Shown: positions 1,141 through 18,194, counted from the first letter of the stretch. The stretch is 64,000 bases of DNA from Candidatus Chromulinivorax destructor (GCF_003366055.1 NZ_CP025544.1:477278-541277), one strand, 5' to 3'. The notes: generated from the sequence alone by a model not told the origin. Numbers and translations are program-made.

Positions 1141-2538
1141 TTAATTTGATTGTTTATTGTTAAGTAGATGTTGTAATTCTATAGATGATATGATTCCTTT
1201 TTTGCGCAATAAATCGACAATACAGATAATATCTGACTTGTTCTCTGAAATATAAATGAACGTTTTTATATAACAATCTTTTAATATAAGTTCAATTTGT
1301 TGATGTATTACATTTTCATCAAGTTCATCTTGATCCTTAATTAAAAGCCTTGCTGCTGTGCGAGCTTGCTCTAAATCACTAAAAGCTCCATTTCGCTCTA
1401 ATAAATCTAAAAATCCAGCATCCATATCATCAAATATTATTTGTGTAGGAAATCCAAATACTTGCTCACTAACTCCTCCCGCTAAATACATCATAATATC
1501 ATGCTCTAATTGAAGATCATTTTGAGTTATATCTTTGTAATGTTCTTGCATAGAAACCATTCCATTATAAAAAATTCTTGGTAGAACTGTAACATATGAA
1601 ACTGATCTTCCTGTATCTTTTTTCATTGCAAGTAATGTATGCCCAGCCTCATGATACATAGTTAATTCATTGTCTCTATATACTAATTTTTTTAAGTTTA
1701 AAATCCATTGAAAATCATTTTTTTTGTGAGCCAATGCCTGATACAGATGTTTTAAATCTATAGAATCTGAATTATCTTTCAATGCAATATGCTGAGCATT
1801 GTGTATAAAATCTATATAATTGACTAATGAAAAAGGTTGCTCACTATAAAATTCAAGCATTAAATTATATACCATAGAAGCATCTATATGATCTGCAAAT
1901 TTTATATGCTGAAAAACATTTTCAAGATATTTTTTAGTATCATCATCACTCAAATCAGCTTCATTTTTTAATAAATACATTTGATTTTTGTCATCATTAC
2001 TTACGTTAAACGCATCAACAAGTCGTTCATCCAGGAAAATTATATGTCCTGATTCTTGTAAATGCTGAATTTTTTGTAAAAAGTAATTTTGCAATAGAAT
2101 TTGTTCAGACTCCAAAGTAGCTCCATCATTCATGGTATCTGACATAATAAGACAAGGTGTAATCGACTGTGCTTTTTCAAAAACTTTATCTATTCGCTTT
2201 TTTCTATTATCAAAAAAAATTCCTTTATCTATTAATTTTGCTGTTTGCACACGAATAATAGAACAATTTATATCATTCTGTAATAATGGATTAAAAAATC
2301 GTTGCTCTGCAACTGGAGATGTTTTTTTACTTGTATTTTTATGATAATTTGTAACAGAATGAGAAACTGTATAAACATCTGTTTTCATATTATCGGTTAA
2401 CTGCAACGTACCTATTACTCCTAAATATGCGCATGCCGAGAATGCTACTTTATTAAAAGCTCCTGCTTGCACTTGGTCACATGGATAACCAAAAAATCTA
2501 ATTAATAGCAATATTATAAAGCATTGATAAATCTTCAT
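1141..2538 (-). CDS. secreted FtsH-like (M41) zinc metallopeptidase-domain protein without AAA module
   Basis: signal peptide MKIYQCFIILLLIRFFG; HEAGH zinc motif (MYHEAGHTLLAM) followed by LAGGVSEQVFG and SDLEQARTAARLLI, matching the FtsH protease-domain layout; no Walker motifs. Confidence 0.55.
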   Translation of the reverse strand: MKIYQCFIILLLIRFFGYPCDQVQAGAFNKVAFSACAYLGVIGTLQLTDNMKTDVYTVSHSVTNYHKNTSKKTSPVAEQRFFNPLLQNDINCSIIRVQTAKLIDKGIFFDNRKKRIDKVFEKAQSITPCLIMSDTMNDGATLESEQILLQNYFLQKIQHLQESGHIIFLDERLVDAFNVSNDDKNQMYLLKNEADLSDDDTKKYLENVFQHIKFADHIDASMVYNLMLEFYSEQPFSLVNYIDFIHNAQHIALKDNSDSIDLKHLYQALAHKKNDFQWILNLKKLVYRDNELTMYHEAGHTLLAMKKDTGRSVSYVTVLPRIFYNGMVSMQEHYKDITQNDLQLEHDIMMYLAGGVSEQVFGFPTQIIFDDMDAGFLDLLERNGAFSDLEQARTAARLLIKDQDELDENVIHQQIELILKDCYIKTFIYISENKSDIICIVDLLRKKGIISSIELQHLLNNKQSN

Positions 2539-2621
2539 ATATTTTTAACCTTCACTGAAACATTTAAATAGGTGTTTTATATAACGAGGTTGTTTCAACC
2601 AAATTTTAACTCTAAAGATTT

Positions 2622-2795
2622 ATCCTACATTTTCTACGAAAACTCCGGGAATTTGCTGACCAGTTAACCTCATGCACTATTTTTTAAACTAAAAAAGCGT
2701 AAAGTGGCCACCGCCACTCCTATTTTCGGAGAGGAGCGAAGCTATATCGTAGGTTTTTATCAACATGTAAATTTGGTTCACACAGCATAATAGTA
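2622..2795 (+). repeat. structured intergenic repeat, copy A (GC-rich core gtggccaccgccac...cggagaggagcgaagc)
   Basis: near-identical to 25878-26060 and related to 3688-3860 and inverted 21245-21425. Confidence 0.65.
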
Positions 2796-2947
2796 ACATA
2801 TCTAATTTTTATATTAAAAAGGTGAATCATTTTTTAAATTACATTCTTAATTTTTAATATAATTTTTTCTACAAAATGTATTCAATTAATCATTGATTTT
2901 ATATTTTATTTTTTAGTATTGTTAGAAATATAGAAAAAGGAATATAT

Positions 2948-3637
2948 ATGTTTCATAATCGATTAACGTACCAACAATTATCAGATTTTTTTCATTTGAC
3001 CACTTTTATAGGGTTAGTAAACCTTTTATGTAAAGTGCTGCAAATTTATTACGTTCCTGATGCTACAAGGCTGAGCATTATCATTGATAATATAAGCAAT
3101 GCTACCTTCTTTACGACAACGATTATTATTGTTGGGCTTGCTCTTAAATTTTTTCTCAAAGATTATAAAAGCTTTACAAAAAAACATAAAATTCTTGCCT
3201 TAAGTATTATGGCATGCATTGTTACGTTTATTGTATGGATTGTCATAACAAATAAAATCTTGAAATTTTACTTGTTTGCCATCAAAGATATGCATGATAA
3301 AAAAGCTGTATATCTTTTTGCTTTTATTATATGCATGCTCATTTTTGATAGTTATTATGCTTATAAAGACCATAGCAAAATAGGCGAGGCTGCTCTTATT
3401 AAAAGTATATTTAAAAGTTTTAGACTTTTACTCTATAAATATTTAGTAATAGGTCTTTCGTATGCAGGGCTTTTGCACATGACAGAATTACATAGATTTG
3501 CAGAAACAAGTGTCCCTATTATACAATATACAACGCTGTGGTTTGCATCTGTTTTAGGATTACTACTCGTATCAATTTGGACCATATATTTTTTATATTA
3601 TGTGCTAAAAAATATATTATATCATCAAGACAAATAA
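2948..3637 (+). CDS. polytopic membrane protein, unknown function (flanked by repeat copies A and B)
   Basis: ORF with SD aaaaaggaa upstream; multiple hydrophobic segments. Confidence 0.5.
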   Translation: MFHNRLTYQQLSDFFHLTTFIGLVNLLCKVLQIYYVPDATRLSIIIDNISNATFFTTTIIIVGLALKFFLKDYKSFTKKHKILALSIMACIVTFIVWIVITNKILKFYLFAIKDMHDKKAVYLFAFIICMLIFDSYYAYKDHSKIGEAALIKSIFKSFRLLLYKYLVIGLSYAGLLHMTELHRFAETSVPIIQYTTLWFASVLGLLLVSIWTIYFLYYVLKNILYHQDK

Positions 3638-3687
3638 TAAATTACCTAGATTGAGTGAATCAAATTTTTACAAGAGAGTTTTCCCCT

Positions 3688-3860
3688 CCCTTTTCTGTGA
3701 AAACTCCGCGAATTTGCTTGCCAGTGTGCCTGATGCACTATTTTTTAAACTAAAAAAGCGTAAAGTTGCAGTCGCTGCTATGCTTGCAAAGATAAGCGTA
3801 GCGATATCGCAGGCTTGTATTTTAATTTTTAAGTTTGCTTTACACAGCCTAAATAATTAA
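3688..3860 (+). repeat. structured intergenic repeat, copy B (more diverged)
   Basis: shares gaaaactccgcgaatttgct...gatgcactattttttaaactaaaaaagcgtaaagt...gcgatatcgcagg with copy A. Confidence 0.55.
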
Positions 3861-3885
3861 TGTTACTATAAAAAAGGAAAGTTAT

Positions 3886-4107
3886 ATGTTTCAAAATTCA
3901 ATAAAAAATATGAGTAATGAATCTAAAGGAATGCTTGCTTCTATTTTAGGACTGATTTTAATTTTAGGTACCCTTGGAAAATTACAAATACTGCAAAGTA
4001 TCTTAAACTCAATTATGTTGCTCACTGGTCTTGCTCTTCTCTTTTGGGGGATTAACGTCAGCAACAGTTATAAAAAAATAACAACGTATCTTCATAAGAA
4101 AAAATAA
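3886..4107 (+). CDS. small membrane protein (73 aa)
   Basis: SD aaaaaaggaaag 6 nt upstream; two hydrophobic helices. Confidence 0.4.
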   Translation: MFQNSIKNMSNESKGMLASILGLILILGTLGKLQILQSILNSIMLLTGLALLFWGINVSNSYKKITTYLHKKK

Positions 4108-4122
4108 ACTTTATCAATTTAT

Positions 4123-4167
4123 AAAAAAGGCGCTCTTGATTATGAACAATCAAGAGCGCCTTTTTTA
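4123..4167. terminator. bidirectional rho-independent terminator (ggcgctcttgat...atcaagagcgcc flanked by A/T runs)
   Basis: perfect 12-bp stem between convergent genes ending 4107 (+) and 4181 (-). Confidence 0.6.
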
Positions 4168-4180
4168 TCTCAAAATAATA

Positions 4181-7100
4181 CTATTTCATCGTAATTTGCA
4201 TAACAGGCTGAGCAACAGAAATTCCATGTGCTTTTAAGTGTATGACAATCGCTAGACGAATATCACTTGCAATTTTCCATTGATTAAGAGTATTTGTAGA
4301 ACTAATATAGCCTCGCACCATAAAGGTATATCCCTTATCGTTAAAATCATCTAAACGAATTAGTGGTTCAGGTACTTTTAATACATCATGATTTTCATCA
4401 AGCACTTGGTGTAAAATATTCTTAACTTGCTCTGGATCGCTATCAAACGGCACAGAAAAAACAATATCATCAAAAGCAATATACCCGCGAGTATAATTCC
4501 AATTATAAATAGGTGATTTTAAGATTTGTGAGTTAGGAACTACAATTGTTACTGAATTTTTTCTGCGTAAAATTACAGCACGTGGTCCGATTTTTTTTAC
4601 AACACCCAAAACATGGTCATCAATTTTAATAAAATCACCTACTTTAACTTGTCGTTGCACTAATATAAAAAAGTAAGCTACAACGTCGGCAAATAGATCT
4701 TTAAACGTCCAACCAAAAGTTACTAACCCGATCCCTAAAATATAGCCTACTAAAAAGCCTAAGCCCTCTAATTCAAGCATAATAAAAATAGTTGCGCTCA
4801 TAATAACATAACGAGAGATTGTCATAACCGTATCTTGCACACCAGGATCTACATACTGAATGTCAAATACTCTTTGTAGCACATACCGTCTAAATAAAAA
4901 TGCTAAAAAAGCACCAATTATTGGAGAAAATAATAATCGAATACAACCTGCAACTCGAATAAATTCTAATTTAGAGCCTGCAGAACCATAATAAATATGA
5001 TAATTTAAAAATTTATCTATTTGATCTAAGGCTATTGGGTAACCCCAAATTTGAGCGATTAAAAGAATTGTTAACGCTATAAATAAAAAGAATAAAATAA
5101 CAACAAATATTGCATACCATGTTTTAGCGTAATCAAATCGTTCTTTTTTGACAAATTCACCAGTATCTTTAAAAAATATCAGTGACGATATTGTTTTAAT
5201 TGCATTGTGAATCAAATACATGGTTGCAAGTAAAATAAGAGTCATGGTGATATTTAAAATCATGTACCACATTAAATGACCGTAACCTCCAAGATATGGG
5301 TCACTTAAAATCAACATAACAATGCAAAATAGTGATAAAATATAATAGTATCTATCAACTAATTTTGAAAACTCTTCAAAATATATATTTGTTTTTGGAA
5401 TTAAATTTAACAGTTCATCTTTTTCGATTGAAAAAACAACTGAAATAAAAATCACGACATGGTATAACCGAAGCAAAATAATAGGAAACTCTGACTGCTG
5501 ATACATCATGACGAGCATGAACATTTTTCTAAAAAATAAAATTGTAATAGTCGAAATTGAAAAAAATGAAAATATCCATCGAAATCGATTTTGAAACGAT
5601 TCGCCCAAAAGTAAATATCCAATAGATTTATTAAAATCTAATAGATAAACCAAAAATGATCGTGATAAATAGGTTAAAAGGACAATAGAAAATGCATAAA
5701 ACATCAAAACAAAGACGATCGAGTAATGACAAATACTCAATGACATAAAGAGTAAAATCCATATATAAATCAACCCTAAATATTCTTGTATAAATCCACA
5801 CAGAACAGCGAACATTCTACTCAATAAAAAAATGTTATGCATGTCTGGACTGATCTGCATAAATGAATTATATAAAGCAGGAAGCATAATTAAAAGACAC
5901 AAATAAATAATATAGAGAAAGATACCAAGTAATATATAGGTAAAAAACTGTGATGTAGAGGTTGTAATAAAATTATAAGCATCATCAAAGAAATTGAAAT
6001 GAATGATATAATCTTGCACCATTCCGTAAATATTATGAACAAAGGTAATGAGATTTGGAATAATTTCTTTAATCCCATTGAGCGTAACTGCACGGTTTGA
6101 TCGATGCCAAACGCCAATTAAATCAAGCTCTTGTAGCATAAAATTCGTCAGGATCAGCGATTCTTCTTTCAACTCAATTAACGATGCATACTGCTCACTT
6201 AATTTAAGATAGACATCTGCCTGGCGCTCAACAGCTTTTAATGATTTTGTTAGTAAAGTTATACTTTCATTATACTTTCTTTGATTTTCAGCAATATCAT
6301 TTGATGGATACGACTTTAATCGTTCTTGATATTTTTTTATATTTTGTAATTTTTTATGCTGAGATTTTATTAACATATGCAATTCGCCTGTGCGATCTTG
6401 ATATGATTTAATCATATTTTGTATAGAATTTTTCGTATCTTTATAATGATTACGTAAGGTTTCTAAATGATCATTATCATGAAATTTAGATTGAGTAATT
6501 GCATACAAAGACTGGACTGCATCTTCTAATGCTTGCGCATGAAATATTTTTGCATCTTGCATCAACAATTCAATACGAATTTTTTCAATTTTTTGATCAA
6601 TAAAAGCTACATTTAAATATGCTAATGAAACAGAAATTGCTTGGAAGTCTTCTTGAATTGTATCAAATGAAACATCCCAATCTTCTACTTGACGAATGTT
6701 GGATAATGAAATTTTATAACGATCACTTAATTTTTCAAGCTCTTCTTGCATGTAAGATTTTTGATTTGCTAGATCAGTTCGATCTTTCATTAAATTAATT
6801 TTACTTGCTTGAACTTCTGACTTTATTTCATTATTTTTTTGCTGATAAAATAACACATCCTGTTTATCAACTTTCATGCGACGTCGAACTTGCACTAAAC
6901 TTGCTTCTAGTTTAATTTTTTTCTGCGCAGTAACAAACATCTGGGATGTTATAAATTCAACGCTTCTGACATGCTCTTCAACACGTAAAGCATCTAATTC
7001 ACGTTCTTGCATCAGCACTTCTTTTTCAAGATTGTATAATGCTACCTGATTTTTGACATCAGCATGATTTGATTTTTTTAATGATTCTATGTAATCATTA

Positions 7101-7726
7101 ATAGCTTTTATTTCTTTATCTTTTGTTGTAATAAAATTTTCAGAACGAGCAACAACCGATTCTTCATTTTCTTTTTTAATTTGTAAACGAGATAAAGCTT
7201 CTTGCTCAAGCATAATTTTATGAGTTAAAATCTGTAAATCAGAAAATGCATATAAAGATTTTTCTTCTATCTCATCATTTGGCTCATCAAGAGATTGAAA
7301 ATATTTATCAAGATATTCAATGTGCTGTTTCATATATTCAGCTATTTGCTGACGAGTTTCACGAACATCAGGAAGAAGTTGATATTTATTATTTAATAAA
7401 TTAAGTTTTTTTGATAAATATTCATTATTCCCATTGGCAGGAGTTGTCTTTAAATTATCTATCTCTTTTTTTACCAAAATCATCTGCTTTTCGATTGCAT
7501 CTGATTGTAACTTTGATTTTTCAAGTAATGCTTTATATTCAACTTTTAACGTTTCAAGCATATTTTGTTTTTGGGCTGCATCTTCACCAATAAAAAACTT
7601 TAGGCCAGTATTTGGCATAACTGAATCTTTTAAAGCATCAAAACCAACAGGTTGCAAATGAAGTGCAAATCCAGAAACAGAACTCATCAACAAACAGAAT
7701 AATGCTTTATGCATATATTTTTTCAT
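4181..7726 (-). CDS. MscK/KefA-like mechanosensitive channel: signal peptide, ~550 aa periplasmic coiled-coil, ~11 TM helices, C-terminal MscS domain
   Basis: C-terminal MscS beta-domain motif GDFIKIDDHVLGVVKKIGPRAVILRRKNSVTIVVPNSQI; long heptad-rich N-terminus; many TM segments. Confidence 0.7.
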   Translation of the reverse strand: MKKYMHKALFCLLMSSVSGFALHLQPVGFDALKDSVMPNTGLKFFIGEDAAQKQNMLETLKVEYKALLEKSKLQSDAIEKQMILVKKEIDNLKTTPANGNNEYLSKKLNLLNNKYQLLPDVRETRQQIAEYMKQHIEYLDKYFQSLDEPNDEIEEKSLYAFSDLQILTHKIMLEQEALSRLQIKKENEESVVARSENFITTKDKEIKAINDYIESLKKSNHADVKNQVALYNLEKEVLMQERELDALRVEEHVRSVEFITSQMFVTAQKKIKLEASLVQVRRRMKVDKQDVLFYQQKNNEIKSEVQASKINLMKDRTDLANQKSYMQEELEKLSDRYKISLSNIRQVEDWDVSFDTIQEDFQAISVSLAYLNVAFIDQKIEKIRIELLMQDAKIFHAQALEDAVQSLYAITQSKFHDNDHLETLRNHYKDTKNSIQNMIKSYQDRTGELHMLIKSQHKKLQNIKKYQERLKSYPSNDIAENQRKYNESITLLTKSLKAVERQADVYLKLSEQYASLIELKEESLILTNFMLQELDLIGVWHRSNRAVTLNGIKEIIPNLITFVHNIYGMVQDYIIHFNFFDDAYNFITTSTSQFFTYILLGIFLYIIYLCLLIMLPALYNSFMQISPDMHNIFLLSRMFAVLCGFIQEYLGLIYIWILLFMSLSICHYSIVFVLMFYAFSIVLLTYLSRSFLVYLLDFNKSIGYLLLGESFQNRFRWIFSFFSISTITILFFRKMFMLVMMYQQSEFPIILLRLYHVVIFISVVFSIEKDELLNLIPKTNIYFEEFSKLVDRYYYILSLFCIVMLILSDPYLGGYGHLMWYMILNITMTLILLATMYLIHNAIKTISSLIFFKDTGEFVKKERFDYAKTWYAIFVVILFFLFIALTILLIAQIWGYPIALDQIDKFLNYHIYYGSAGSKLEFIRVAGCIRLLFSPIIGAFLAFLFRRYVLQRVFDIQYVDPGVQDTVMTISRYVIMSATIFIMLELEGLGFLVGYILGIGLVTFGWTFKDLFADVVAYFFILVQRQVKVGDFIKIDDHVLGVVKKIGPRAVILRRKNSVTIVVPNSQILKSPIYNWNYTRGYIAFDDIVFSVPFDSDPEQVKNILHQVLDENHDVLKVPEPLIRLDDFNDKGYTFMVRGYISSTNTLNQWKIASDIRLAIVIHLKAHGISVAQPVMQITMK

Positions 7727-7982
7727 AACAATCCTTACTCACTACTCTTCAATTTTTTTATGTATAATGAACAACAACTATAACGAGCATACTATGATGC
7801 TTCATGCGATGCATGGTATTTATTGTCATAGCGTATCTTGCTACTATAATACAAGAATTATTATGGTAAATAATACATATATTTACCATAAGTTGCGACC
7901 TTAATATTTTAAATTTTAACAGACGCTTTATACATGAGCTTGTGCGAATTAAATTTTATAGAGATTGTTCTGGCCTACGTTT

Positions 7983-8510
7983 TTATATTTGATCACTCGA
8001 CCAGCAATAATGAAGTGCTTTATAAAGAATTTGATCAATATTATCAATATCAACTCGATAACCTTGCACAACAATTTGATACAGTAATCTGTCTTCAGGA
8101 AATATTCCTAAATACAAAAAGAGCTTTAATAGATGTATTTTTTTTTGCTCACTAGTAACTGATTCTAAATTTTGATAAATCTCAAGAATTAAAGTGAAAA
8201 TATCTTGCATCATAATTTGCCATGGTGCAAAATTTAAACATATTTTTAAAATGTCATGCACAAAATAAAGGTCATAGGTATCAGGATTAAATGGAATAAA
8301 ATAAACATCAAGAAAATCGCACTGATAGGATGATTCTTTCTTTTTTATATCACAAAAAATTAATGATCCATTACAAAGTTTTGATGCTTCATGTTTTTCC
8401 GTAATAAATAAATTTATTTTTCCAAACTGCTCGTGCAAAATCGTAACTTTATTTTTCTTGGGAAACCAGTTTTTTAAAACAATTGCATGACTGATCAAAA
8501 AATGCTCCAT
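7983..8510 (-). CDS. hypothetical protein, weak resemblance to RecO N-terminal OB-fold region
   Basis: AIVLKNWFPKKNKVTILHEQFGKINLFI pattern; only 175 aa and no zinc-finger region, so possibly truncated or unrelated. Confidence 0.25.
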   Translation of the reverse strand: MEHFLISHAIVLKNWFPKKNKVTILHEQFGKINLFITEKHEASKLCNGSLIFCDIKKKESSYQCDFLDVYFIPFNPDTYDLYFVHDILKICLNFAPWQIMMQDIFTLILEIYQNLESVTSEQKKIHLLKLFLYLGIFPEDRLLYQIVVQGYRVDIDNIDQILYKALHYCWSSDQI

Positions 8511-8618
8511 GATAAAAATATTTGTTGTTATGATTGTACAATTTTAGCATAATCGGTACTATTACAAAAATATAATTTTAAAATTAAAATAATCACACTG
8601 TATGGAAGGTAAATTGGT

Positions 8619-8915
8619 ATGAAATTTTTATACGTTATTGCTTGCTGCATGTTATTTTTTTTACCTAATTTGTGCCATGCATCTGAAATTGAAACAAAAA
8701 ATTCAATCTCAGATTCTGATTGGCTTATTGCTGATAAAGAAGGCAATTCAGAAGAAGTAGAAAAACCTGCCCCAGCAGTCCATGAAGATCAAGAATTTAA
8801 CCCAGATGCGCACATTATTGCAGAAGTTGATGCAATAGCAAAGTCTATGTGTGATGATGCTCTTGCAATCTGGAGCTCTGTTCTATCTTTATTTACCGAT
8901 GATGATAATCTATAA
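8619..8915 (+). CDS. small secreted acidic protein (98 aa)
   Basis: SD ggaagg; signal peptide MKFLYVIACCMLFFLPNLCHA; D/E-rich. Confidence 0.4.
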   Translation: MKFLYVIACCMLFFLPNLCHASEIETKNSISDSDWLIADKEGNSEEVEKPAPAVHEDQEFNPDAHIIAEVDAIAKSMCDDALAIWSSVLSLFTDDDNL

Positions 8916-9130
8916 AACTTTACAATAGTTAATTTTGTAAAAGCTTTTGTCAAAAATCTCTGGCACCATTTCTATAATTGAAAAGTTTTGAATATAATAA
9001 ATTTACAAACATCACTATTAATTCATTTCGATAGCAAATAATAGATTTTAATTAGTAAAATAGGTATTCTAAAAGAAACATAATTTTTTAGAGTACCTAG
9101 AATTTTTATCAAATAAGGAAAACTTAGACG

Positions 9131-10936
9131 ATGGATCAATCAAAGATACGTAACGTTGCTATTATAGCACACGTTGATCACGGTAAAACAACTATGGTTG
9201 ACGAAATATTCAAGCAAAGTGATTCTATGCAAGCGCATCATGTTATTGAAGAGCGTTTGATGGATTCAATTGATCTTGAAAAAGAGCGTGGAATTACCAT
9301 TAAATCAAAAAATGGTTCTTGCATGTACAAAGACTATTTTATTAACATCATCGACACACCTGGTCACGCTGACTTTGGTGGAGAAGTTGAACGCGTGCTT
9401 AAAATGGCTGACGGTGTTCTTTTCCTTGTTGATGCTGCAGAAGGCCCAATGCCTCAGTCTTTCTTCGTATTGAAAAAAGCTGTTGCATTAAACTTACCTG
9501 TAGTTGTTGTTGTAAACAAAATCGACAAAGAAACAGCTCGTATTGAATGGGTTATTGACCAAGTTTTCGATCTTCTTGTAGGTCTTAATGCTCCTGATGA
9601 AATCTTAGATTTCAAAGTTGTATACGCATCAGCAAGAAACGGTTGGGCAACAACTGACTATAACGTTAAAACTGATAACATCAAAGCTATTTTTGAAGCG
9701 ATTGTAAACTACATCCCTGCACCTAAAGGTGACCCAAACGGTCCTTTCCAAATGCTTGTAAGTTCAATTGATCATTCAGCTTTCATGGGTCGTTTAGCAA
9801 TTGGTAAAGTTACTTCTGGTTCAATAGCTTTAGCTAACAGCGTAGTTGCTGCATCAGAAAACTTTATGAGTCAGCCTATCCGTGTAACAAAATTATACAG
9901 ATTTGAACGTAATAAACATATGGAAATCGAAACAGCTTCAGTTGGTGAAATCATCGCTGTTGCAGGTTTTAAAGATATTTTAGTAGGTCAAACTGTTACG
10001 AGTGCATCAAACCCAATTCCACTACCTTCATTCAAAATTGATCCACCAACAGTTGCTATTAAATTCTTACCAAACGACTCTCCATTGTCAGGTCAAGAAG
10101 GCGATTTCATTACAAGTCGTCAATTGCATGATCGTTTACACCGTGAACCACTTTCAGACATTGCTATGCAAGTTGAAGATGATGGTATCGGATTTAAAGT
10201 TTCTGGCCGTGGCGAATTACATCTTTCAATCTTTATTGAAAAATTACGTCGTGAAGGTTATGAATTCCAAGTATCTCGTCCTGAAGTAGTTTTCCAAGTT
10301 ATTGATGGCAAAAAAATGGAACCGTACGAAACGGTAACTATCGACGTTGCAACTCAATACATTGGTAAAATTATTGAAGCTATGGGTACACGTAAAGGTC
10401 AAATGACTGATATGAGAGAAGATGGTCCTATGACTCGTCTTATCTATGAAATCCCAACTCGTGGTATTTTAGGATACCAAGCTGACTTCATGATGGATAC
10501 TAAAGGTATGGGTATCATGAGTTCTGCTTTTGACAAATACGGTCCATACATTGGTGAAATCAGACTTCGTCAAAATGGTGTGATGATTGCTATGGAAAGT
10601 GGCAAAACAACTTCATACGCACTTGAAGGTCTTGAAGACCGTGGTGTATTGATTATGGGTTCTGGCCAAACTGTGTACGAAGGTCAAATCGTTGGTAAAC
10701 ATTCACGCGATAACGACTTAACAGTTAATGCTTGTAAAGGCAAAAAACTAACGAACATGCGTGCATCTGGTTCTGATGATTCAACAGCATTACAACCGCA
10801 TCTACAAATGACGTTAGAACAATGTCTATCGTTCATTATGGATGATGAGTTGATCGAATTCACTCCAAAATCAATTCGCTTAAGAAAAATGATTTTAAAC
10901 GAAGGTGAACGTAAACGTAGTGGTAAAAAAAGCTAA
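9131..10936 (+). CDS. typA: translational GTPase TypA/BipA
   Basis: G-domain motifs AHVDHGKTT, DTPGHADF, NKID; EF-G-like domains; C-terminal BipA-type domain. Confidence 0.9.
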   Translation: MDQSKIRNVAIIAHVDHGKTTMVDEIFKQSDSMQAHHVIEERLMDSIDLEKERGITIKSKNGSCMYKDYFINIIDTPGHADFGGEVERVLKMADGVLFLVDAAEGPMPQSFFVLKKAVALNLPVVVVVNKIDKETARIEWVIDQVFDLLVGLNAPDEILDFKVVYASARNGWATTDYNVKTDNIKAIFEAIVNYIPAPKGDPNGPFQMLVSSIDHSAFMGRLAIGKVTSGSIALANSVVAASENFMSQPIRVTKLYRFERNKHMEIETASVGEIIAVAGFKDILVGQTVTSASNPIPLPSFKIDPPTVAIKFLPNDSPLSGQEGDFITSRQLHDRLHREPLSDIAMQVEDDGIGFKVSGRGELHLSIFIEKLRREGYEFQVSRPEVVFQVIDGKKMEPYETVTIDVATQYIGKIIEAMGTRKGQMTDMREDGPMTRLIYEIPTRGILGYQADFMMDTKGMGIMSSAFDKYGPYIGEIRLRQNGVMIAMESGKTTSYALEGLEDRGVLIMGSGQTVYEGQIVGKHSRDNDLTVNACKGKKLTNMRASGSDDSTALQPHLQMTLEQCLSFIMDDELIEFTPKSIRLRKMILNEGERKRSGKKS

Positions 10937-10997
10937 ACTTTACCGTTTAATTTTTGATCAAATACAAAAGAAGGGAATCTTTACAGATTCCCTTCTT
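10720..10997 (+). repeat. direct repeat 1 (278 bp): last ~217 nt of typA plus its terminator
   Basis: near-identical copy at 11675-11952 (a handful of substitutions plus a loop flip). Confidence 0.85.
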
Positions 10998-11000
10998 GCT
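10968..11000 (+). terminator. typA terminator hairpin aagggaatc-tttaca-gattccctt followed by T-run
   Basis: perfect 9-bp stem. Confidence 0.6.
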
Positions 11001-11111
11001 TTTATATAGTAAATATACACATAAAAAATTATGCGCATGAGCCAACTCCATGAGCAGCCTATACTTCATTCTAGATCGAATTTTTTATTCACCGCTAAAA
11101 TCATATACTTT

Positions 11112-11438
11112 TTATTTTCTGGCCATTGATTCTGCTAAATCGGCATCACTTGTAGCAGCAAGTTCAGCTAAAATATTTTCATTTGCGCCATTACTCATTA
11201 ACAAGAATTTTTTCATAGCACTCAATTCCAACTTATCTCTTTTTGTAATATCACTACCATCAATTAATTTATTTAATACGATAATAATTGATGGTATAAT
11301 TTTATCATTTATATCATCGCGCATAGAATTTACCTTAGAGTTTAATGACTTAAAATCTTGTGGTACTTGAGATCCTTGCATTGTATGACTGATTGCTAAA
11401 AGCATCATCGGTAAAACTATAAATTTAAACTGTTTCAT
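11112..11438 (-). CDS. small secreted protein (108 aa) carried on the insert between the typA 3' repeats
   Basis: start ATG at 11438 preceded by SD aggag; signal peptide MKQFKFIVLPMMLLAISHT; the track ORF extends further 5' but without SD. Confidence 0.5.
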   Translation of the reverse strand: MKQFKFIVLPMMLLAISHTMQGSQVPQDFKSLNSKVNSMRDDINDKIIPSIIIVLNKLIDGSDITKRDKLELSAMKKFLLMSNGANENILAELAATSDADLAESMARK

Positions 11439-11674
11439 AATCACTCTCCTTTTTATTTTATAAATCACAACAAAAAAACTGTAGCAAAAAGATAGTTTAA
11501 AAGTCAATAAAATTTCAATTTGAATATAAAAAAGCCGAGAGATTGCTCTACATTCGCATAAAAAATTATTCGCATGTACCATTTTCATGGTCGTCTTTAT
11601 TGCATTTTCAACAAGATTCTTGCTCATTTGGCCTATCCTGTACAAAAACATTAACTTTATTCTTTGGGTAATCA

Positions 11675-11952
11675 AACAGTTAATGCTTGTAAAGGCAAAA
11701 AACTAACGAACATGCGTGCATCTGGTTCTAATGATTCAACAGCATTGCAACCGCATCTACAAATGACGTTAGAACAATGTCTATCGTTCATTATGGATGA
11801 TGAGTTGATCGAATTCACTCCAAAATCAATTCGCTTAAGAAAAATGATTCTTAACGAAGGTGAACGTAAACGTAGTGGTAAAAAAAGCTAAACTTTACCG
11901 TTTAATTTTTGATCAAATACAAAAGAAGGGAATCTGTAAAGATTCCCTTCTT
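11675..11952 (+). repeat. direct repeat 2 (278 bp): copy of typA 3' end plus terminator
   Basis: see 10720-10997; hairpin loop reads tgtaaa (reverse complement of tttaca in copy 1). Confidence 0.85.
11676..11891 (+). pseudogene. TypA C-terminal gene fragment (72 codons in frame, no SD or start of its own)
   Basis: translates to NACKGKKLTNMRASGS(N)DSTALQPHLQMTLEQCLSFIMDDELIEFTPKSIRLRKMILNEGERKRSGKKS, identical to the typA C-terminus except D->N. Confidence 0.7.
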
Positions 11953-11976
11953 CATTACTATAGATACAAATATTTA

Positions 11977-12204
11977 TTACGCAGGTTTATCTTGGCATGT
12001 TTTATTGTTACCGGTTGAACAATATCCTGATTGACAATCATTATTATTTCCTTTGCAGGGATGCCCGTTTTTTATTTTAGTGCTCCCCTTTTGAACCACA
12101 ACCCCACTTTGATCAGAATTTTGAGCATACCAACAAACAGCCAAATATGCTCCCGCAATCAGAACAATTGCACTCAAAATAATTTTTAAATTTTTATTCA
12201 ACAT
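11977..12204 (-). CDS. small membrane-anchored Cys-rich protein (75 aa)
   Basis: N-terminal TM helix, then GHPCKGNNNDCQSGYCSTGNNKTCQDKP (6 Cys). Confidence 0.4.
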   Translation of the reverse strand: MLNKNLKIILSAIVLIAGAYLAVCWYAQNSDQSGVVVQKGSTKIKNGHPCKGNNNDCQSGYCSTGNNKTCQDKPA

Positions 12205-12556
12205 TGTACATTTCCCTTTTTATTTTTTTAGACTCATCTATATCTGACGTTACTACATCAAATATCTAAAAATGAAGTCTTTTTCAATAAACAGAGAAAC
12301 CTGCAATATTACTATGCTCATTTCATGTTTTACACTAATTCTACCGCGTTATAATTTTAATAATGCTTCTGCTCAATACAAACTATTGGGATAGGTATTG
12401 CCTTAAACGTAAAAACAAAGTCAGCCTTTTGCGTGAATGAACGATACAATGTATGCTTACAAAAGATAAAAAATAGATAGAGCTTAAACTCTGCTCTGGT
12501 ATGATTAATAGTATAAATATATAAAAACAGTTTTACCCTCCGCTTGGATTTTAAAT

Positions 12557-13477
12557 ATGAACAAACAATCTGCACGTAATCTTATGCTCATAATAAGTAT
12601 GATTGCATCAATTGACCACCTGCTTGCAGCTCCAAAAAAGCCAAATAAAAATTCGAATCAAAATCAACCTCCAGTAAAAAAACCTATTAAAATTGATACC
12701 GAATTACCTTTGCAAATTTTTTATCCTGGCGATATCAAAACTAAATTTACTGACATAGCAGGTCTTGATATTGCAAAATCTTGCATGCTCGATATTATTT
12801 CGTACCTGAAAGATTCTTCAAAATATGATGCTATTGGGGCAAAAATAACCAAAGGTATTTTATTTGACGGAAGCACGGGAAATGGAAAGACGATGCTTGC
12901 TCGAGCTTTTGCAGGTGAAGTTAATTGCCCATTTATTAGTATGAATGGAGCATCATTTGTAGAAATGTATGTTGGTGTTGGGCCATCTCGAGTACGAGAA
13001 CTTTTTTTAATTGCTCGCAAGCTGGCTCCTTGCATTGTTTTTATTGACGAAATTGATGCATTACTTGCAGCACGCGGATCAGATAAAGAGTATAGCAATA
13101 CGGTCAATGCATTTTTAACAGAAATGGATGGTTTATTTAACGATAACACGACAATAATTATTATTGGTGCTACCAATAGAATTAATGCACTTGATGAAGC
13201 TGCAATTCGACCAGGAAGATTTGATCGTAAAATATATATTACCAAGCCAACACTTGAAGCTCGTGTGCAACTTTTAGAAAATCAATTTAAAAAAGTGAAG
13301 CATGCACCAGGTTTAGATATTTATTACATTGCGCAAATGACGACTGGTTTTTCATGTGCAGAATTAACAAATCTAGTCAATGAAGCTGCAATTATTGCCG
13401 TTAACACCAATTCTTTATGGGTTGAAATGACGCACATTCGACAAGCATTTGATAGAATGAGAAATCATAGAAGTTAA
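12557..13477 (+). CDS. stand-alone FtsH-type AAA+ ATPase domain protein with N-terminal signal/anchor, no peptidase domain
   Basis: Walker A GSTGNGKT, Walker B IVFIDEIDAL, SRH/Arg-finger RPGRFDR; sequence tracks FtsH AAA module (FVEMYVGVGPSRVRELF); ends after the AAA lid. Confidence 0.65.
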   Translation: MNKQSARNLMLIISMIASIDHLLAAPKKPNKNSNQNQPPVKKPIKIDTELPLQIFYPGDIKTKFTDIAGLDIAKSCMLDIISYLKDSSKYDAIGAKITKGILFDGSTGNGKTMLARAFAGEVNCPFISMNGASFVEMYVGVGPSRVRELFLIARKLAPCIVFIDEIDALLAARGSDKEYSNTVNAFLTEMDGLFNDNTTIIIIGATNRINALDEAAIRPGRFDRKIYITKPTLEARVQLLENQFKKVKHAPGLDIYYIAQMTTGFSCAELTNLVNEAAIIAVNTNSLWVEMTHIRQAFDRMRNHRS

Positions 13478-13554: not shown

Positions 13555-14391
13555 ATGTTCTCTCGTAAAAAATTTTTTATACTTCTTATCATATTTACCC
13601 ATATAAACTTATTAGCACAAAGATCAAAAAAAGATCATACGATAACGGTATTTGTCCATGAAACATTTCCTATGCGCAGGCTTTTGCACCATACCCCAGC
13701 AAAATCACTTCTGTATACAGAGCAAGGGCTTTGCTTGGCAAAAAATCTTCCAAATCATTACCATTTTTATAAAATAGCTCAGGGATGCATAAAACTTAAT
13801 AGCCATGATTATGGCTGGGATAGATTTTACATCTTTGGGTGGAAATCTGAAAAAATATTAAATAGCTCCAGAAAAAATGCTGCCAAAGATTTAGTTACTG
13901 CTCTTGCACAAGTTGTTGATAGTTATTACATCCAACATGGAGTTCACCCTTCTATTCGACTTATTGGCTTTTCACATGGTGGCAATGTTGTTTTACACAC
14001 AGCAAATTACTTACCTTTAGTGCATAATACAATACCAATAGATGTCCAAGCATGGATTTTTGGGACTCCTATACAGCAAGCTAACCACGATTGCGTTAAT
14101 CAAGGAAAATTTACACAATGTTATTCATTTTATTCAGAAAAAGATTGGATTCAACGAATTGATCCTCAAGGTCTTTGTAATAAAAAAATAAGAAAAGATC
14201 ATTTTTGGTCTGATAGAACTTTTGATAAAGATGCATCATGCATTCAAGTGAAATTTACCGTCAATGATAAATCGATCAGTCACATCTATTATCGCAGTGT
14301 ATTTAAATATTTTCCGATTATTGAACAGATCACTCAATCACAATCAGATGGTTTACAATCAGGTATGATAGCAGTTGATGTAAAAATTTAA
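13555..14391 (+). CDS. secreted alpha/beta-hydrolase (lipase/esterase-like), paralog 1
   Basis: signal peptide; VFVHETFP oxyanion-type motif; GxSxG = GFSHGG; ~65-70% identical to 15219-16073 over the C-terminal half. Confidence 0.6.
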   Translation: MFSRKKFFILLIIFTHINLLAQRSKKDHTITVFVHETFPMRRLLHHTPAKSLLYTEQGLCLAKNLPNHYHFYKIAQGCIKLNSHDYGWDRFYIFGWKSEKILNSSRKNAAKDLVTALAQVVDSYYIQHGVHPSIRLIGFSHGGNVVLHTANYLPLVHNTIPIDVQAWIFGTPIQQANHDCVNQGKFTQCYSFYSEKDWIQRIDPQGLCNKKIRKDHFWSDRTFDKDASCIQVKFTVNDKSISHIYYRSVFKYFPIIEQITQSQSDGLQSGMIAVDVKI

Positions 14392-14506: not shown

Positions 14507-15166
14507 ATGCAAAAAAAATTATTATTCATTTGCCTATTATTAAGTTCACCATGCATGATGTTTGGACAAAAAGATTATAAAAAAGATAGTTACTACCAAA
14601 ATCTTACCGATCTTAAAAAACTTAATTATGCAATTGAAGAATCAGATATTCCAACTATTACCACATTACTTACAAAAGTAGATATAAACTCTCAAGATAC
14701 AAGTGGCAGCACGCCATTACATAATGCTATTGCAGATGGAAATTTAAAAATTATACAATTGCTCGTTAATTCAGGTGCAAATATTAATGCGAAAGATAAA
14801 AAAGGATACACGCCTTTATATGAAGTTTTTAATTCACTTATTGAATCAATTGTCATGATTTATTGTGATAGCATTGAAACAGACCAATCAATATTACAAG
14901 ACATAATAGATGGATATGCTTTAAAATATATTACAATAGCTCAATATTTAGTTACTTCAGGTGCAGATACTACATTACAATACGATACTGATGATAATTG
15001 GTATGAAATAATTCCTCAAAATAAATATCTAACACTTTTAGATATTATCACTGAAGTACAATCAGCTTTTACTGAAGAATTAACAAAAAATAATTATGAT
15101 GCAACAGCGTTAAAAGCATGTATCAAACATTTTGATACATTTAAATCAATTTTACAGCGTCAATAA
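14507..15166 (+). CDS. secreted ankyrin-repeat protein
   Basis: signal peptide; ANK consensus TPLHNAIADGNLKIIQLLVNSGANINAKDKKGYTPL. Confidence 0.7.
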   Translation: MQKKLLFICLLLSSPCMMFGQKDYKKDSYYQNLTDLKKLNYAIEESDIPTITTLLTKVDINSQDTSGSTPLHNAIADGNLKIIQLLVNSGANINAKDKKGYTPLYEVFNSLIESIVMIYCDSIETDQSILQDIIDGYALKYITIAQYLVTSGADTTLQYDTDDNWYEIIPQNKYLTLLDIITEVQSAFTEELTKNNYDATALKACIKHFDTFKSILQRQ

Positions 15167-15218: not shown

Positions 15219-16073
15219 ATGAAAGGTAATCATCTCATAATGAAAAAATATTTTGTCATATTACTATCATGTATTTTCAATATCTCTCTATCAGCTTTGC
15301 AACAAACAACAGCTGATCATGCTATTACGGTTTTTGTCCATGGCACGTACCCAATTCCTAAAATTTTACGCAATTCTCCTTTTCGTAAATTAATGTATTG
15401 CCCACAAGGCCTCTCACTAGCAAAAAAACTGCCTGCAGATTATCATTTCCATACCATTGCACAAGGATGCGTTGATCTTAATCCTTCATTGTATTCACTT
15501 GATCAATTTTATGTTTTTGGATGGCCTTCAGAAAAAATTTATGACAGCGTTAGACAACAAGCAGCATCTGACCTTGCCAACGCTCTGAAAACAACTGTTA
15601 CAAACTACTATGCTCAACATGGAATACAACCAAAAATACGATTAATTGGATTTTCTCATGGAGGAAATGTGGTCTTAAATACTGCAAATTTCTTAACTCA
15701 ATTAGTACAAGAACAAAAAATCACCACTGAAATTTGGATTTTTGGAACACCGGTACAACAGATTAACCATAATTTGATACAGAGTAAGAATTTTCATAAA
15801 GTGTACTCAATTTTTTCTCAAACTGATTGGCTTCAACGAATGGATCCGCAAGGATTATATAACAAAGATATACGACATGAATATTTTTGGTCTGACCGAA
15901 TGTTTGATAAAGATGCATCGTGCATTCAAATAAATTTCACGGTCAATAACAAATCAATTAGCCATAGTTATTACCGCCATATTTTTAAATATTTTCCTAT
16001 AATTCAAAAATCTATTGAAAATCAATCTCAAGATTTGCAATCAGGCATAATAAGCGTAGATTTAAAAATCTAA
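15219..16073 (+). CDS. secreted alpha/beta-hydrolase (lipase/esterase-like), paralog 2
   Basis: VFVHGTYP, GFSHGG; C-terminus FWSDRMFDKDASCIQINFTVNNKSISHSYYRHIFKYFPII nearly identical to paralog 1. Confidence 0.6.
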   Translation: MKGNHLIMKKYFVILLSCIFNISLSALQQTTADHAITVFVHGTYPIPKILRNSPFRKLMYCPQGLSLAKKLPADYHFHTIAQGCVDLNPSLYSLDQFYVFGWPSEKIYDSVRQQAASDLANALKTTVTNYYAQHGIQPKIRLIGFSHGGNVVLNTANFLTQLVQEQKITTEIWIFGTPVQQINHNLIQSKNFHKVYSIFSQTDWLQRMDPQGLYNKDIRHEYFWSDRMFDKDASCIQINFTVNNKSISHSYYRHIFKYFPIIQKSIENQSQDLQSGIISVDLKI

Positions 16074-16127: not shown

Positions 16128-18194
16128 TTACGACTGCAATGAATCTATCAAAGCTTTTTTAGTTACCGTAGAGCCAAGCAATAATTCAACCAACTTTTGC
16201 GGATCTTGACTACCACCATGACACAACAAAGCTTGATACAATTTTTGGCCTACTTCATTGTCAGTAATGCCATGTTTTGTTATGTATTCAAAGAGTCCTG
16301 CTGCCAAAACTTTTGACCAGACATATCCGTAATAATGTGAACCGTAAGCTATCAGATGTTCAAATCCAGTTTCAAAATGATCTTGTGGGCAGTACTCAAC
16401 ATCAGTTCTTACTTGTCTATAGAGCTTTTCAACAATATCATGAGGTTGAATTTTTTCAGCATCTTTTCCAAATTCAAGTGATATCAATGACAATAAACAT
16501 TGTCGAGATAACAAACTTGCTCGGCCAAATTTTTCTGCAGCAACTATTTTTTGTACCATTGCATCAGATAACTTTTCTTGAGTGATGTAATGCTGACTAA
16601 ACTGCTTGATCATAGAAGGATTATCCATCCACATTTCAAACAATTGCGACGGCACCTCTAAAAAGTCACGTGGTCCATGAGAGCCTGCAATATCAACAAA
16701 ATCAGTAGCCCCAAAAAGTTCTTGTAAAGCATGGCCAAATTCATGGAACAATGTTTTAACATCATGAAACTCAAGCAATGTTTTTTTACCATCTTGAGCT
16801 TTATTAAAATTCGTAATAATTGTTGAAAGACCGCTACATGCAAAACTACAATCATCTTGAATTGTAGGAATGACACTCATCTGGCATGCTTGTTCAGATT
16901 TTCCAGGGCGAGCATAAAGGTCAAAAACAAGATACCCAAGAATTTCATTTGTTTTTAAAAGCCTTACCTGAAAACAGATAAGATCTTTATGCCATAATCC
17001 ATGACAAGGAACCTGGTCAAATGATAATGCAAAAAATTGTCCAAATTGTTTAGTTAATTGATTGATAACATTATCAATAGGAAAATATTGCGCAAGAGCA
17101 GTTGCATCAATATCAAAATGACTTTTTCTATAGGTAGATCGCACAAAAGCTTCATCAAAAGGTTGTAATTTACCTGTCAAAGATAAAACAACTGATTCAG
17201 GTAAATTTTTTGTTAATTGCACAAATTCTTCATCAACAATGGTATTTGTTGATGCTACAATTTCCATAATAAAATCTTGTGCACGTTGAACGCTTCCAAC
17301 CATTTGCAATGCACACTCATACTCTGCAAAATTTTTATACCCAACTAAGCGAGCATACTCATTACGTTTATAAATAAGTTTTTTAAGCACATCTTCATTT
17401 TTTGGATACACTCGTCGATTAAACTCTAAAAATATTTTTTTACGAGTTGCAGCTATGGTACAATTTTCTAAAATCGTAAAAAATGCATCATAGGTTAAAG
17501 GGATAGTATAACCGCGTTTTGTTTGATGCAAGTTTGTAAGGTATAAAGCAGGAACTCCAACAAGTTCATCTTTGGTACAAACAATGGATTTAGCATGATT
17601 TACTATATAAGAACCAAATTCAGCTTCTAATTTTTTGATGTCTTTTGATAATTTATTTAATCGAGTAAGAATTGCTGAGGATAGATGAGCTCCTTCATGC
17701 TCTAATTTATTAATCGATTTTTGTAAAAAAGTTCGAACAGAGATTGTTTTGCTTGGATCATCATGACCGTATTGAGCATAATCTTGAAATGCATGTAACA
17801 ATATTGGGTTACGCACTAACTTGTCTGCTTGGTACTGTTGAAGTTCTGTAACCGCATGATTTGCACAAGAACGAAGTGAGGGATCACTATCTAGCATAGA
17901 TACAGTTGAGAGTATCTGTAAATTCATAATAAATTTAAATTTTGCATTATCATACAAACGAATGCTGTTATAAAAATTTCTATGTTGTGGCTCTTGAGAC
18001 TCTAATGTTTTTAACATAGTATCAATTACTGCAATAGCTTTGTGCTTCATTGCTCCTATTTGTTGTTCATTTTTTGGAAACATCGTAACAATTGATTGCC
18101 AATCAAGTCTGCTACATAAGCGCATTTCAGGACTTTTAACATAGTGACACCCTGAAAAAATCAGTAGTAATAATAATCCGTACAAGCGCTTCAT
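16128..18194 (-). CDS. M3-family zinc oligopeptidase (oligopeptidase A/Dcp-like), lipoprotein
   Basis: HEXXH as FHEFGHALQ with downstream E; length ~690 aa; N-terminal MKRLYGLLLLLIFSGC lipobox. Confidence 0.75.
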   Translation of the reverse strand: MKRLYGLLLLLIFSGCHYVKSPEMRLCSRLDWQSIVTMFPKNEQQIGAMKHKAIAVIDTMLKTLESQEPQHRNFYNSIRLYDNAKFKFIMNLQILSTVSMLDSDPSLRSCANHAVTELQQYQADKLVRNPILLHAFQDYAQYGHDDPSKTISVRTFLQKSINKLEHEGAHLSSAILTRLNKLSKDIKKLEAEFGSYIVNHAKSIVCTKDELVGVPALYLTNLHQTKRGYTIPLTYDAFFTILENCTIAATRKKIFLEFNRRVYPKNEDVLKKLIYKRNEYARLVGYKNFAEYECALQMVGSVQRAQDFIMEIVASTNTIVDEEFVQLTKNLPESVVLSLTGKLQPFDEAFVRSTYRKSHFDIDATALAQYFPIDNVINQLTKQFGQFFALSFDQVPCHGLWHKDLICFQVRLLKTNEILGYLVFDLYARPGKSEQACQMSVIPTIQDDCSFACSGLSTIITNFNKAQDGKKTLLEFHDVKTLFHEFGHALQELFGATDFVDIAGSHGPRDFLEVPSQLFEMWMDNPSMIKQFSQHYITQEKLSDAMVQKIVAAEKFGRASLLSRQCLLSLISLEFGKDAEKIQPHDIVEKLYRQVRTDVEYCPQDHFETGFEHLIAYGSHYYGYVWSKVLAAGLFEYITKHGITDNEVGQKLYQALLCHGGSQDPQKLVELLLGSTVTKKALIDSLQS

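Follow-up and report, generated by a model that had tools for sequence, protein, structure and literature searches.

Two FtsH paralogues of Candidatus Chromulinivorax destructor with complementary decay: a predicted pseudo-ATPase M41 protease and a signal-bearing AAA-only protein

Two FtsH-derived genes in the window

The chromosome of Candidatus Chromulinivorax destructor (GCF_003366055.1) encodes, within the 64,000-nucleotide stretch NZ_CP025544.1:477278-541277 (hereafter the window, numbered from its first nucleotide), two independent, lineage-specific paralogues of FtsH that have decayed in complementary ways. Open reading frame (ORF) A, at 1141..2538 on the minus strand (465 amino acids, aa), combines an intact M41 zinc site with an ATPase module that is dead. 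ORF B, at 12557..13477 on the plus strand (306 aa), is an FtsH-type AAA module only, without an M41 domain. The joint reading that we favour, with moderate confidence, is that ORF A would be a pseudo-ATPase protease on the cytoplasmic side of the inner membrane and ORF B plausibly an exported motor.

Both ORFs had been delimited in a first-pass annotation of the window, and both are annotated genes of the organism. ORF A is identical to AXK60590.1, labelled "hypothetical protein" at NCBI and Peptidase M41 domain-containing protein in UniRef; ORF B is identical to AXK60600.1, labelled "AAA family ATPase". The window is a segment of bacterial chromosome with low GC content (~32%) that carries many ankyrin-repeat genes and genes with signal-like N-termini. 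No further FtsH-like genes besides these two were found within its 64 kb. Two scans of GTDB contigs, which cover neither the source genome nor the named relatives, used the alignments of the two families and returned no relatives.

The organism, also published as Chromulinavorax destructans SeV1 (Dependentiae), has a genome of 1,174,272 bp. Its UvrB is 100% identical to the one encoded in the window. It is a diderm, obligate intracellular and lytic pathogen of the flagellate Spumella elongata, and it replicates in the host cytoplasm wrapped by the host mitochondrion (PMC6561590). The same paper reports no complete metabolic pathways, import from the host as the sole source of ATP, signal peptides on 44% of the coding sequences (CDS; Phobius) and outer membrane vesicles, and names M3, M15, M23, M41 and M48 in one line among the secreted proteinases. 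FtsH or AAA proteins are not discussed there, and its supplement has no M41, FtsH or AAA entry; literature searches for Dependentiae or Babela together with FtsH found nothing. ATP/ADP translocases and components of type II secretion (T2SS) occur in the phylum.

M41 peptidases listed as secreted were already known from this organism (PMC6561590). What is new is an FtsH form with an intact protease and a dead ATPase and, in a diderm energy parasite, an AAA-only form that bears a signal-like N-terminus and is conserved.

ORF A keeps an M41 zinc site behind a degenerate AAA module

The C-terminal part of ORF A (aa 286-465; 1144..1683, minus strand) matched Pfam Peptidase_M41 (PF01434) with 44.6 bits (E 1.9e-11), above the gathering threshold of 29.9. 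This match spans only profile positions 7-79 of 191, and the remainder of the domain was recovered by hhalign and by a structural model. The M41 hallmarks noticed in the initial reading are in place, namely HEAGH at aa 296-300 (1639-1653) and SDLEQARTAARLLI (aa 387-400; 1339-1380), which contains the third zinc ligand, D388 (1375-1377); E358 also belongs to the zinc site. In an alignment of 36 homologues the zinc-site residues H296, E297, H300, E358 and D388 are near-invariant.

The ~300 aa that precede the protease domain had been described as unrelated sequence, which proved incorrect. Residues 74-285 (1684..2319, minus strand) are a degenerate FtsH AAA alpha/beta and lid module, recognised by hhalign, an AlphaFold2 (AF2) model and Foldseek. 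A profile built from ORF A and three orthologues was aligned by hhalign with one built from short FtsH-like paralogues of related metagenomic bacteria; the match had a probability of 99.6% (E 9e-25) and covered aa 74-462, that is, the AAA alpha/beta domain, the lid and M41. At the homologous positions SPVAEQRF replaces the Walker A motif GxxGxGKT, the Walker B glutamate is lost (DT for DE, in PCLIMSDTMN), and the arginine-finger motif RPGRFDR is gone. ORF A gave no match to Pfam AAA (PF00004) or AAA_lid_3. The AF2 model had a mean confidence (pLDDT) of 73.5 overall and of ~70-89 in the pseudo-AAA core, and Foldseek aligned it with whole cytosolic chains of FtsH, Yme1, AFG3L2 and FtsHi (E ~1e-14 to 1e-10, ~400-440 columns). 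This fold evidence is supportive and not independent, because FtsH sequences were in the model's alignment.

ORF A is thus not peptidase-only, as first described: the ATPase motifs are lost, but the decayed AAA module is still present. ORF A is a predicted pseudo-ATPase M41 metallopeptidase that keeps the soluble architecture of FtsH and has lost all of its nucleotide motifs. As it would cut without ATP-driven unfolding of its own, it would act on peptides, unfolded chains or substrates delivered by a partner.

Orthologues of ORF A fall in three clusters at 96, 79 and 65% identity, and the reading frame is intact in all of them down to 65%. An exhaustive phmmer search recovered older ATPase-dead relatives at 30-35% identity (P0126, P0128, P0129, P0132), of which one comes from a Candidatus Chromulinivorax metagenome-assembled genome (MAG) and two form a tandem pair. 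Since ATPase-dead relatives exist at this distance, the pseudo-ATPase state is old and has been retained. More widely, Walker A is absent and HEXXH is kept in ~65 of the 101 representatives that matched ORF A, most of them with a signal-like N-terminus. The M41 peptidases that the genome paper lists as secreted (PMC6561590) probably correspond to this ATPase-less radiation. One of its clusters, P0137, includes a second C. destructans protein, AXK60357.1 (= P0358), located outside the window.

The ATPase-less, signal-bearing M41 proteins (P0130-P0152 and others) range from 200 to 726 aa. At least 20 of them share a C-terminal motif of the P-L-Y-D-F-E type (KPLYDFEQGPLP-like), which had no Pfam match. 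A different variant was seen in P0005 (Candidatus Dependentiae bacterium, 509 aa), which keeps Walker A and HEAGH and in which the pore-1 loop has apparently been deleted (GADFASGPSRIKK replaces FVEMYVGVGxxRVR).

ORF B is an AAA motor without a protease

ORF B scored 133.3 bits against Pfam AAA (PF00004; cut-off 21.2) and 35.6 bits against AAA_lid_3 (cut-off 27.2). Among NCBIfam models the FtsH family (FtsH_fam) ranked first with 310 bits, followed by proteasome-activating nucleotidase (PAN; 212) and CDC48 (169). The AAA alpha/beta domain, delimited by Pfam and motifs, occupies aa 53-235 (12713..13261, plus strand), with Walker A GSTGNGKT at 12869-12892, the pore loop FVEMYVGVG at 12956-12982, Walker B FIDEID at 13031-13057, sensor-1 ATNR at 13166-13180, and the arginine fingers of the second region of homology (SRH), RPGRFDR, at 13208-13228. 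The AAA lid domain follows (aa 236-306; 13262..13474, plus strand) and ends at the AAA/protease boundary; ORF B matches FtsH_fam profile positions 156-402 of 598. That ORF B is a bona fide FtsH-type AAA module lacking a protease domain, as first described, was confirmed by Pfam, NCBIfam and the motifs.

Seven 90%-identity clusters of ORF B orthologues were found, all AAA-only and 305-344 aa long. Their identities form a series of 95, 79-80 and 65%, with frames intact in all down to 65%, and Walker A, the pore loop, Walker B, sensor-1 and both arginine fingers are invariant in the seven. The ratio of nonsynonymous to synonymous substitution (dN/dS) was 0.10 in the AAA domain, 0.12 in the lid (range 0.10-0.13) and 0.15 overall; values of 0.10-0.13 in the AAA and lid domains indicate that the ATPase is in use. 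ORF B is, by its motifs, a fully competent FtsH-type AAA motor and a predicted unfoldase/translocase without a protease of its own.

Two paralogues rather than two halves of one gene

The two proteins had been presented as FtsH modules split into two polypeptides. It is correct that each lacks one of the two FtsH activities, but they are not two halves of one gene. ORF A keeps a decayed AAA module, and P0013, the sister of ORF B, keeps a decayed M41 domain; fission of a single ftsH was rejected on these two remnants, and for the same reason ORF A and ORF B are regarded as independent paralogues. In a neighbour-joining (NJ) tree of AAA modules, the ORF B clade had 100% bootstrap support and P0013 was its sister at 78%. 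P0013 (534 aa) has an intact ATPase and an M41 HEXXH mutated to TQAAI; its gene forms a tandem pair with another FtsH-like gene that is complete. The next relatives of ORF B are complete short FtsH-like proteins of ~535 aa without FtsH_ext, built of a signal-like first transmembrane segment (TM1), a loop of 20-35 aa, a second transmembrane segment (TM2), AAA, and M41 with HEAGH. The ordering of these proteins, complete, then protease-dead, then protease-deleted, favours stepwise decay of a duplicate over the fission of one gene. Pfam FtsH_ext (PF06480) had no match in ORF A or ORF B, and the two scored 40.6 and 310.4 bits, respectively, against TIGR01241, whose equivalog cut-off is 600 bits.

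The proposed history would begin when a short gene encoding an FtsH-like protein (a signal-like TM1, a short loop, TM2, AAA and M41, but no FtsH_ext) was duplicated. One copy, ORF A, would then have lost the nucleotide binding and hydrolysis motifs and kept the complete zinc site, and the other, ORF B, would have lost TM2 and M41 and kept the AAA motor.

FtsH-derived genes of the relatives often lie in tandem or near-tandem pairs (L009 14-3303; L003 8800-11434; L007 5359-9605). Such pairs include P0013 beside a complete paralogue, the ATPase-dead P0128 and P0129, and two complete paralogues flanking an ankyrin gene.

Complementary activities raise the possibility of a two-component FtsH acting in trans, in which an AAA-only ring of ORF B docks on and feeds a protease ring of ORF A, as ClpX does with ClpP. 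A single metagenome sample (SRR22387936) contains orthologues of both, equally diverged (79% identity each), and the orthologue series run in parallel (96/79/65% for ORF A, 95/79-80/65% for ORF B). In that sample, however, they lie on different contigs, which agrees with the genes being unlinked as originally described. ORF A is moreover missing from the syntenic spot in the P0011 lineage, which has ORF B; the orthologues make up seven clusters for ORF B and three for ORF A; the predicted topologies of the two proteins differ; and ORF A still has its own dead AAA ring on the membrane side of the protease chamber, where it would take up the docking face. We regard an in-trans pair as quite unlikely.

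Nor do the two genes look like functionless decaying remnants, an explanation to which we give hardly any weight. Each has lost half of the FtsH activities, and aa 191-285 of ORF A have a dN/dS of ~1.6. Against this, no orthologue down to 65% identity has a broken frame, the zinc site of ORF A and the ATPase motifs of ORF B are invariant, and purifying selection acts on ORF B (0.15) and on the pseudo-AAA core and M41 domain of ORF A (0.30 and 0.32, respectively; Nei-Gojobori against the 79%-identical orthologue). A pseudogene reading was rejected because both genes are conserved with dN/dS well below 1.

The synonymous divergence of ORF A (dS 0.27, 1141-2538 vs L001 10001-11395) is far below that of its neighbours on the same contig pair (1.1-1.5), with ordinary dN. 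The low dS and the high ratio in aa 191-285 might be due to a recent exchange, to constraint at the nucleotide level or to positive selection acting on the pseudo-lid.

Topology and export

Topology and signal calls for both ORFs were made by manual inspection and hydropathy analysis (Kyte-Doolittle, KD, and a simple Hessa sum). The canonical FtsH transmembrane helices in the comparison set had 19-residue KD means of 2.2-2.8, against only 1.3-1.5 for the N-terminal segments of both ORFs and their relatives, in which the h-regions are short. The AxA-type motif at the end of TM1 throughout the family of short FtsH-like proteins (such as VQA|G, VHAQA|N or ELHA|E) makes this segment resemble a cleavable Sec signal, followed in the complete members by TM2 as a stop-transfer segment.

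ORF A has two weak hydrophobic segments ~10 aa apart. The first, signal-peptide-like (aa 1-25; 2464..2538, minus strand), ends in DQVQA|G (V at -3, A at -1), a motif invariant in four orthologues. The second (aa 31-47, VAFSACAYLGVIGTLQL; 2398..2448, minus strand), which the first-pass annotation did not mention, is moderately hydrophobic by hydropathy and is a candidate TM2 or stop-transfer segment; in the distant relatives P0129 and P0132 it is clearly hydrophobic. Because this second segment has been kept, we favour an FtsH-like arrangement in which the catalytic part is cytoplasmic. The two segments of ORF A most likely form an FtsH-like hairpin or else a cleaved signal followed by a stop-transfer anchor; either would put the catalytic part on the cytoplasmic face.

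The N-terminus of ORF B (aa 1-25; 12557..12631, plus strand) is Sec-signal-like, with an n-region MNKQSAR that carries two or three positive charges, an h-region of 11-12 aa, a polar c-region SIDH and small residues at -1/-3 (LLA|A). This n/h/c pattern is kept in all seven orthologues though the segment is only 38-48% identical. It is followed by a Lys/Pro/Asn/Gln-rich linker of variable length (aa 26-52; 12632..12712, plus strand) without a second hydrophobic segment. The same type of N-terminus is found on ~20 other proteins of the window's predicted secretome, among them ankyrin proteins and two with a lipobox. Housekeeping cytoplasmic proteins of the window (BipA, UvrB, leucyl-tRNA synthetase [LeuRS], ribonucleotide reductase [RNR] and ribosomal proteins) have no such N-terminus, and an artefact of AT-rich composition was rejected on that basis. 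Signal-like N-termini on both proteins, as initially proposed, are thus supported by their likeness to the window's secretome. For ORF B, whose signal-like N-terminus is not followed by a stop-transfer segment, the simplest prediction is export across the inner membrane.

Two other accounts of the ORF B N-terminus were discarded. A mis-called start hiding an upstream transmembrane segment was rejected, because the called ORF is the longest possible and begins where its orthologues begin. A reading of the N-terminus and linker as resembling a nuclear localisation signal or a mitochondrial signal-anchor was set aside as too speculative, the spacing being variable among orthologues.

Several points weigh against the arrangement that we favour. 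The second segment of ORF A is only moderately hydrophobic (KD 1.3, simple Hessa sum +5.6), so ORF A might be fully exported, and full export of the ORF A type is also what the architecture of P0130 points to (a signal-only N-terminus, pseudo-AAA, M41 and C-terminal ankyrin repeats). The overall dN/dS of ORF A is elevated (0.41), which also fits relaxed constraint. The 24 residues after the ORF B h-region have a net charge of +4, the highest of the 23 signal-like proteins in the window. Positive charge early in the mature region hampers Sec export in E. coli, and this region of ORF B could hold the AAA domain in the cytoplasm instead. We also know of no AAA+ ATPase established outside the cytoplasm in a diderm bacterium.

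On balance, export is plausible for ORF B and less so for ORF A. For the AAA domain of ORF B we put it at about even, with a slight lean towards export.

These points bear on a rival in which both ORFs face the cytoplasm as subunits or partners of hetero-oligomeric complexes with complete short FtsH-like paralogues of the same genome, like chloroplast FtsH/FtsHi or the mitochondrial m-AAA protease. The N-termini would then be uncleaved anchors, and the Lys-rich linker of ORF B would hold its AAA domain inside. We think this is less probable than the favoured reading but the most serious of its competitors. The family is ancestrally of the form TM1, short loop, TM2 and cytoplasmic AAA-M41; ORF A has a candidate TM2; the +4 linker of ORF B agrees with the positive-inside rule; the protease-dead P0013, closest to ORF B, is encoded in tandem with a complete paralogue; and Ycf2-FtsHi motor complexes are among the fold matches of ORF A. 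However, ORF B, with a positive N-terminus and a single h-region of 11-12 residues, cannot keep both ends cytoplasmic as a normal transmembrane protein. TM2-only FtsH derivatives, which would sit with the N-terminus out and the C-terminus in, have uncharged N-termini unlike that of ORF B. The M41 domain drives FtsH hexamerisation, and ORF B lacks it. Alternating rings of ORF A and ORF B could not hydrolyse ATP because ORF A has no arginine fingers.

The first-pass annotation had instead suggested delivery into a host cell, or a non-canonical topology. In the former case both proteins would be effectors, with ORF A cutting host proteins and ORF B remodelling host complexes on host ATP. We consider this effector reading improbable. 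In its favour, signal-like N-termini are common to the ankyrin-repeat secretome of the window, M41 is listed among secreted proteinases in an organism with outer membrane vesicles (PMC6561590), P0130 fuses pseudo-AAA-M41 to ankyrin repeats, many M41-only relatives have a signal-only N-terminus, ORF B adjoins signal-bearing ankyrin and lipase-like genes, and AAA+/FtsH proteins of phytoplasmas are predicted to face the host (PMC6981957). Secretion of the two proteins is in part consistent with the data, through their N-termini, the 44% of CDS with signal peptides and the M41 listing, but the second hydrophobic segment of ORF A fits an FtsH-like hairpin. Moreover, the adjacency of ORF B to the ankyrin and lipase-like genes is not conserved (it is absent in L005), ORF B evolves in a housekeeping-like manner (dN/dS 0.15) in a conserved BipA-ORF B-M3 neighbourhood, and we found no evidence of a route across the outer membrane for either protein.

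Host ATP and a possible role for ORF B

An exported AAA module had been thought to make little sense in an ATP-free periplasm. This premise is weak here, as the only ATP of the organism is imported from the host (PMC6561590). If all ATP comes from the host, host ATP would have to be present in the periplasm, and an extracytoplasmic AAA motor is therefore energetically conceivable in this organism. An exported ORF B could run on host ATP, since all ATP that the bacterium uses crosses the periplasm. Its role might plausibly be to feed exported peptidases, or to remodel host or envelope proteins.

In its most extended form, this proposal would make ORF B an AAA+ unfoldase outside the cytoplasm (in the periplasm or beyond) powered by host ATP. 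Together with the signal-bearing, ATPase-less M41 peptidases of the lineage it would constitute a modular, extracytoplasmic FtsH-derived system that degrades or imports host proteins. We offer this only tentatively and think it rather doubtful.

If an AAA motor does operate outside the cytoplasm, the rule that processes in the bacterial periplasm are ATP-independent would be broken, in an exception tied to energy parasitism. Even otherwise, a pseudo-ATPase protease would be a natural experiment on what the AAA ring contributes beyond ATP hydrolysis, and genes of the ORF A and ORF B types are concrete candidates for the means by which Dependentiae digest or manipulate the protists they infect.

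Comparison with known FtsH-related systems

FtsH is normally a single, cytoplasm-facing, ATP-coupled protease, and here the family has been dismantled in several ways: an ATPase-dead protease that mirrors plant FtsHi, a motor without a protease, and a radiation of signal-bearing M41-only proteins. With respect to canonical FtsH (TIGR01241), the AAA module of ORF B and the M41 domain of ORF A are clear homologues, and ORF A keeps the AAA-lid-M41 order and the fold. Canonical FtsH, in contrast, has two transmembrane helices around a periplasmic FtsH_ext; neither ORF has FtsH_ext, ORF B has one hydrophobic segment and no protease domain, ORF A has no ATPase motifs, and both score under the equivalog cut-off.

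The chloroplast FtsHi proteins and the Ycf2-FtsHi motor are likewise retained FtsH paralogues in which one activity has been lost, and FtsHi structures are among the Foldseek matches of ORF A. ORF B and P0013 show the same combination of an active ATPase with a protease that is absent or dead, although ORF B has deleted M41 outright. ORF A is the mirror image of FtsHi, with an intact protease site and a dead ATPase. We know of no described FtsH-family member that is protease-intact and ATPase-dead, and our literature searches found none.

Phytoplasmas have expanded FtsH/HflB families and membrane AAA+ proteins without a protease domain, some of them predicted to be host-facing (Jollard 2019, PMC6981957; Seemuller 2013, as cited in PMC6981957). 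They too are obligate intracellular bacteria with an expanded FtsH family, and an extracytoplasmic ORF B would parallel models proposed for phytoplasmas (PMC6981957). Unlike the diderm C. destructans, they have a single membrane that touches the host cytoplasm; an ATPase-dead protease form is not reported from them, and the phytoplasma topology is also only predicted.

Two further systems offer partial likenesses. LonC-type proteases are ATP-independent Lon-like enzymes that keep an AAA-like module without nucleotide motifs before an active protease chamber. The likeness to ORF A would be a functional analogy only, as LonC is a Ser-Lys Lon protease and ORF A a zinc M41 protein. Msp1/ATAD1 is a eukaryotic, N-terminally anchored single-AAA extractase with its N-terminus out and its C-terminus in. 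Like it, ORF B has one N-terminal hydrophobic segment, a linker, a single classical-clade AAA domain and no protease; unlike it, ORF B has an N-terminus resembling a Sec signal of the cleavable type, and by phylogeny it derives from FtsH.

Genes around ORF A and ORF B

The order BipA-ORF B-M3 peptidase is conserved in relatives. The ankyrin and lipase-like genes beside ORF B are not conserved in the P0011 lineage, and ORF A is missing there from the syntenic position as well. The genes that follow ORF B directly downstream are a signal-bearing ankyrin gene and, on either side of it, two paralogous lipase-like genes that bear signals too and have weak DUF726/Lipase_3 matches (13555-14391, 14507-15166 and 15219-16073). 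The relative L002 carries a single lipase-like copy; all three genes are absent from L005.

Between BipA and ORF B, a 30-nt GC-rich palindromic hairpin (AAGAAGGGAATCTTTACAGATTCCCTTCTT) occurs twice, at 10968-10997 and 11922-11953, and brackets ~0.9 kb that hold a small signal-bearing ORF (11112-11675, minus strand). Since the gap between BipA and ORF B is only ~280 bp in L005, this stretch resembles an insertion bounded by terminator-like repeats.

The neighbour of ORF A at 2948-3637 (plus strand) encodes a 229-aa multi-pass membrane protein, of which a relative has three tandem paralogues (L001 7640-9789). It appears to be a fast-evolving neighbour, given its 31% identity to the copy compared (L001 9076-9789; dN/dS 0.44).

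Elsewhere in the window, an M3 oligopeptidase (16128-18194, minus strand) and a thioredoxin-fold protein (42526-43182, plus strand) start with lipobox-like signals (LIFSGC and TLFSC), which suggests that enzymes kept in the cytoplasm by many bacteria are exported here as lipoproteins. The N-terminal hydrophobic extensions of a thymidylate kinase and a CPT-like kinase were set aside and not used as evidence, as they are probably over-extended ORF calls. A GNAT acetyltransferase (56199-56876, minus strand) has a strongly hydrophobic N-terminal segment (MKKIIGILTCLLGLFFAYSWFF); it is a further cofactor-dependent enzyme of this genome that carries a signal for the membrane or for export.

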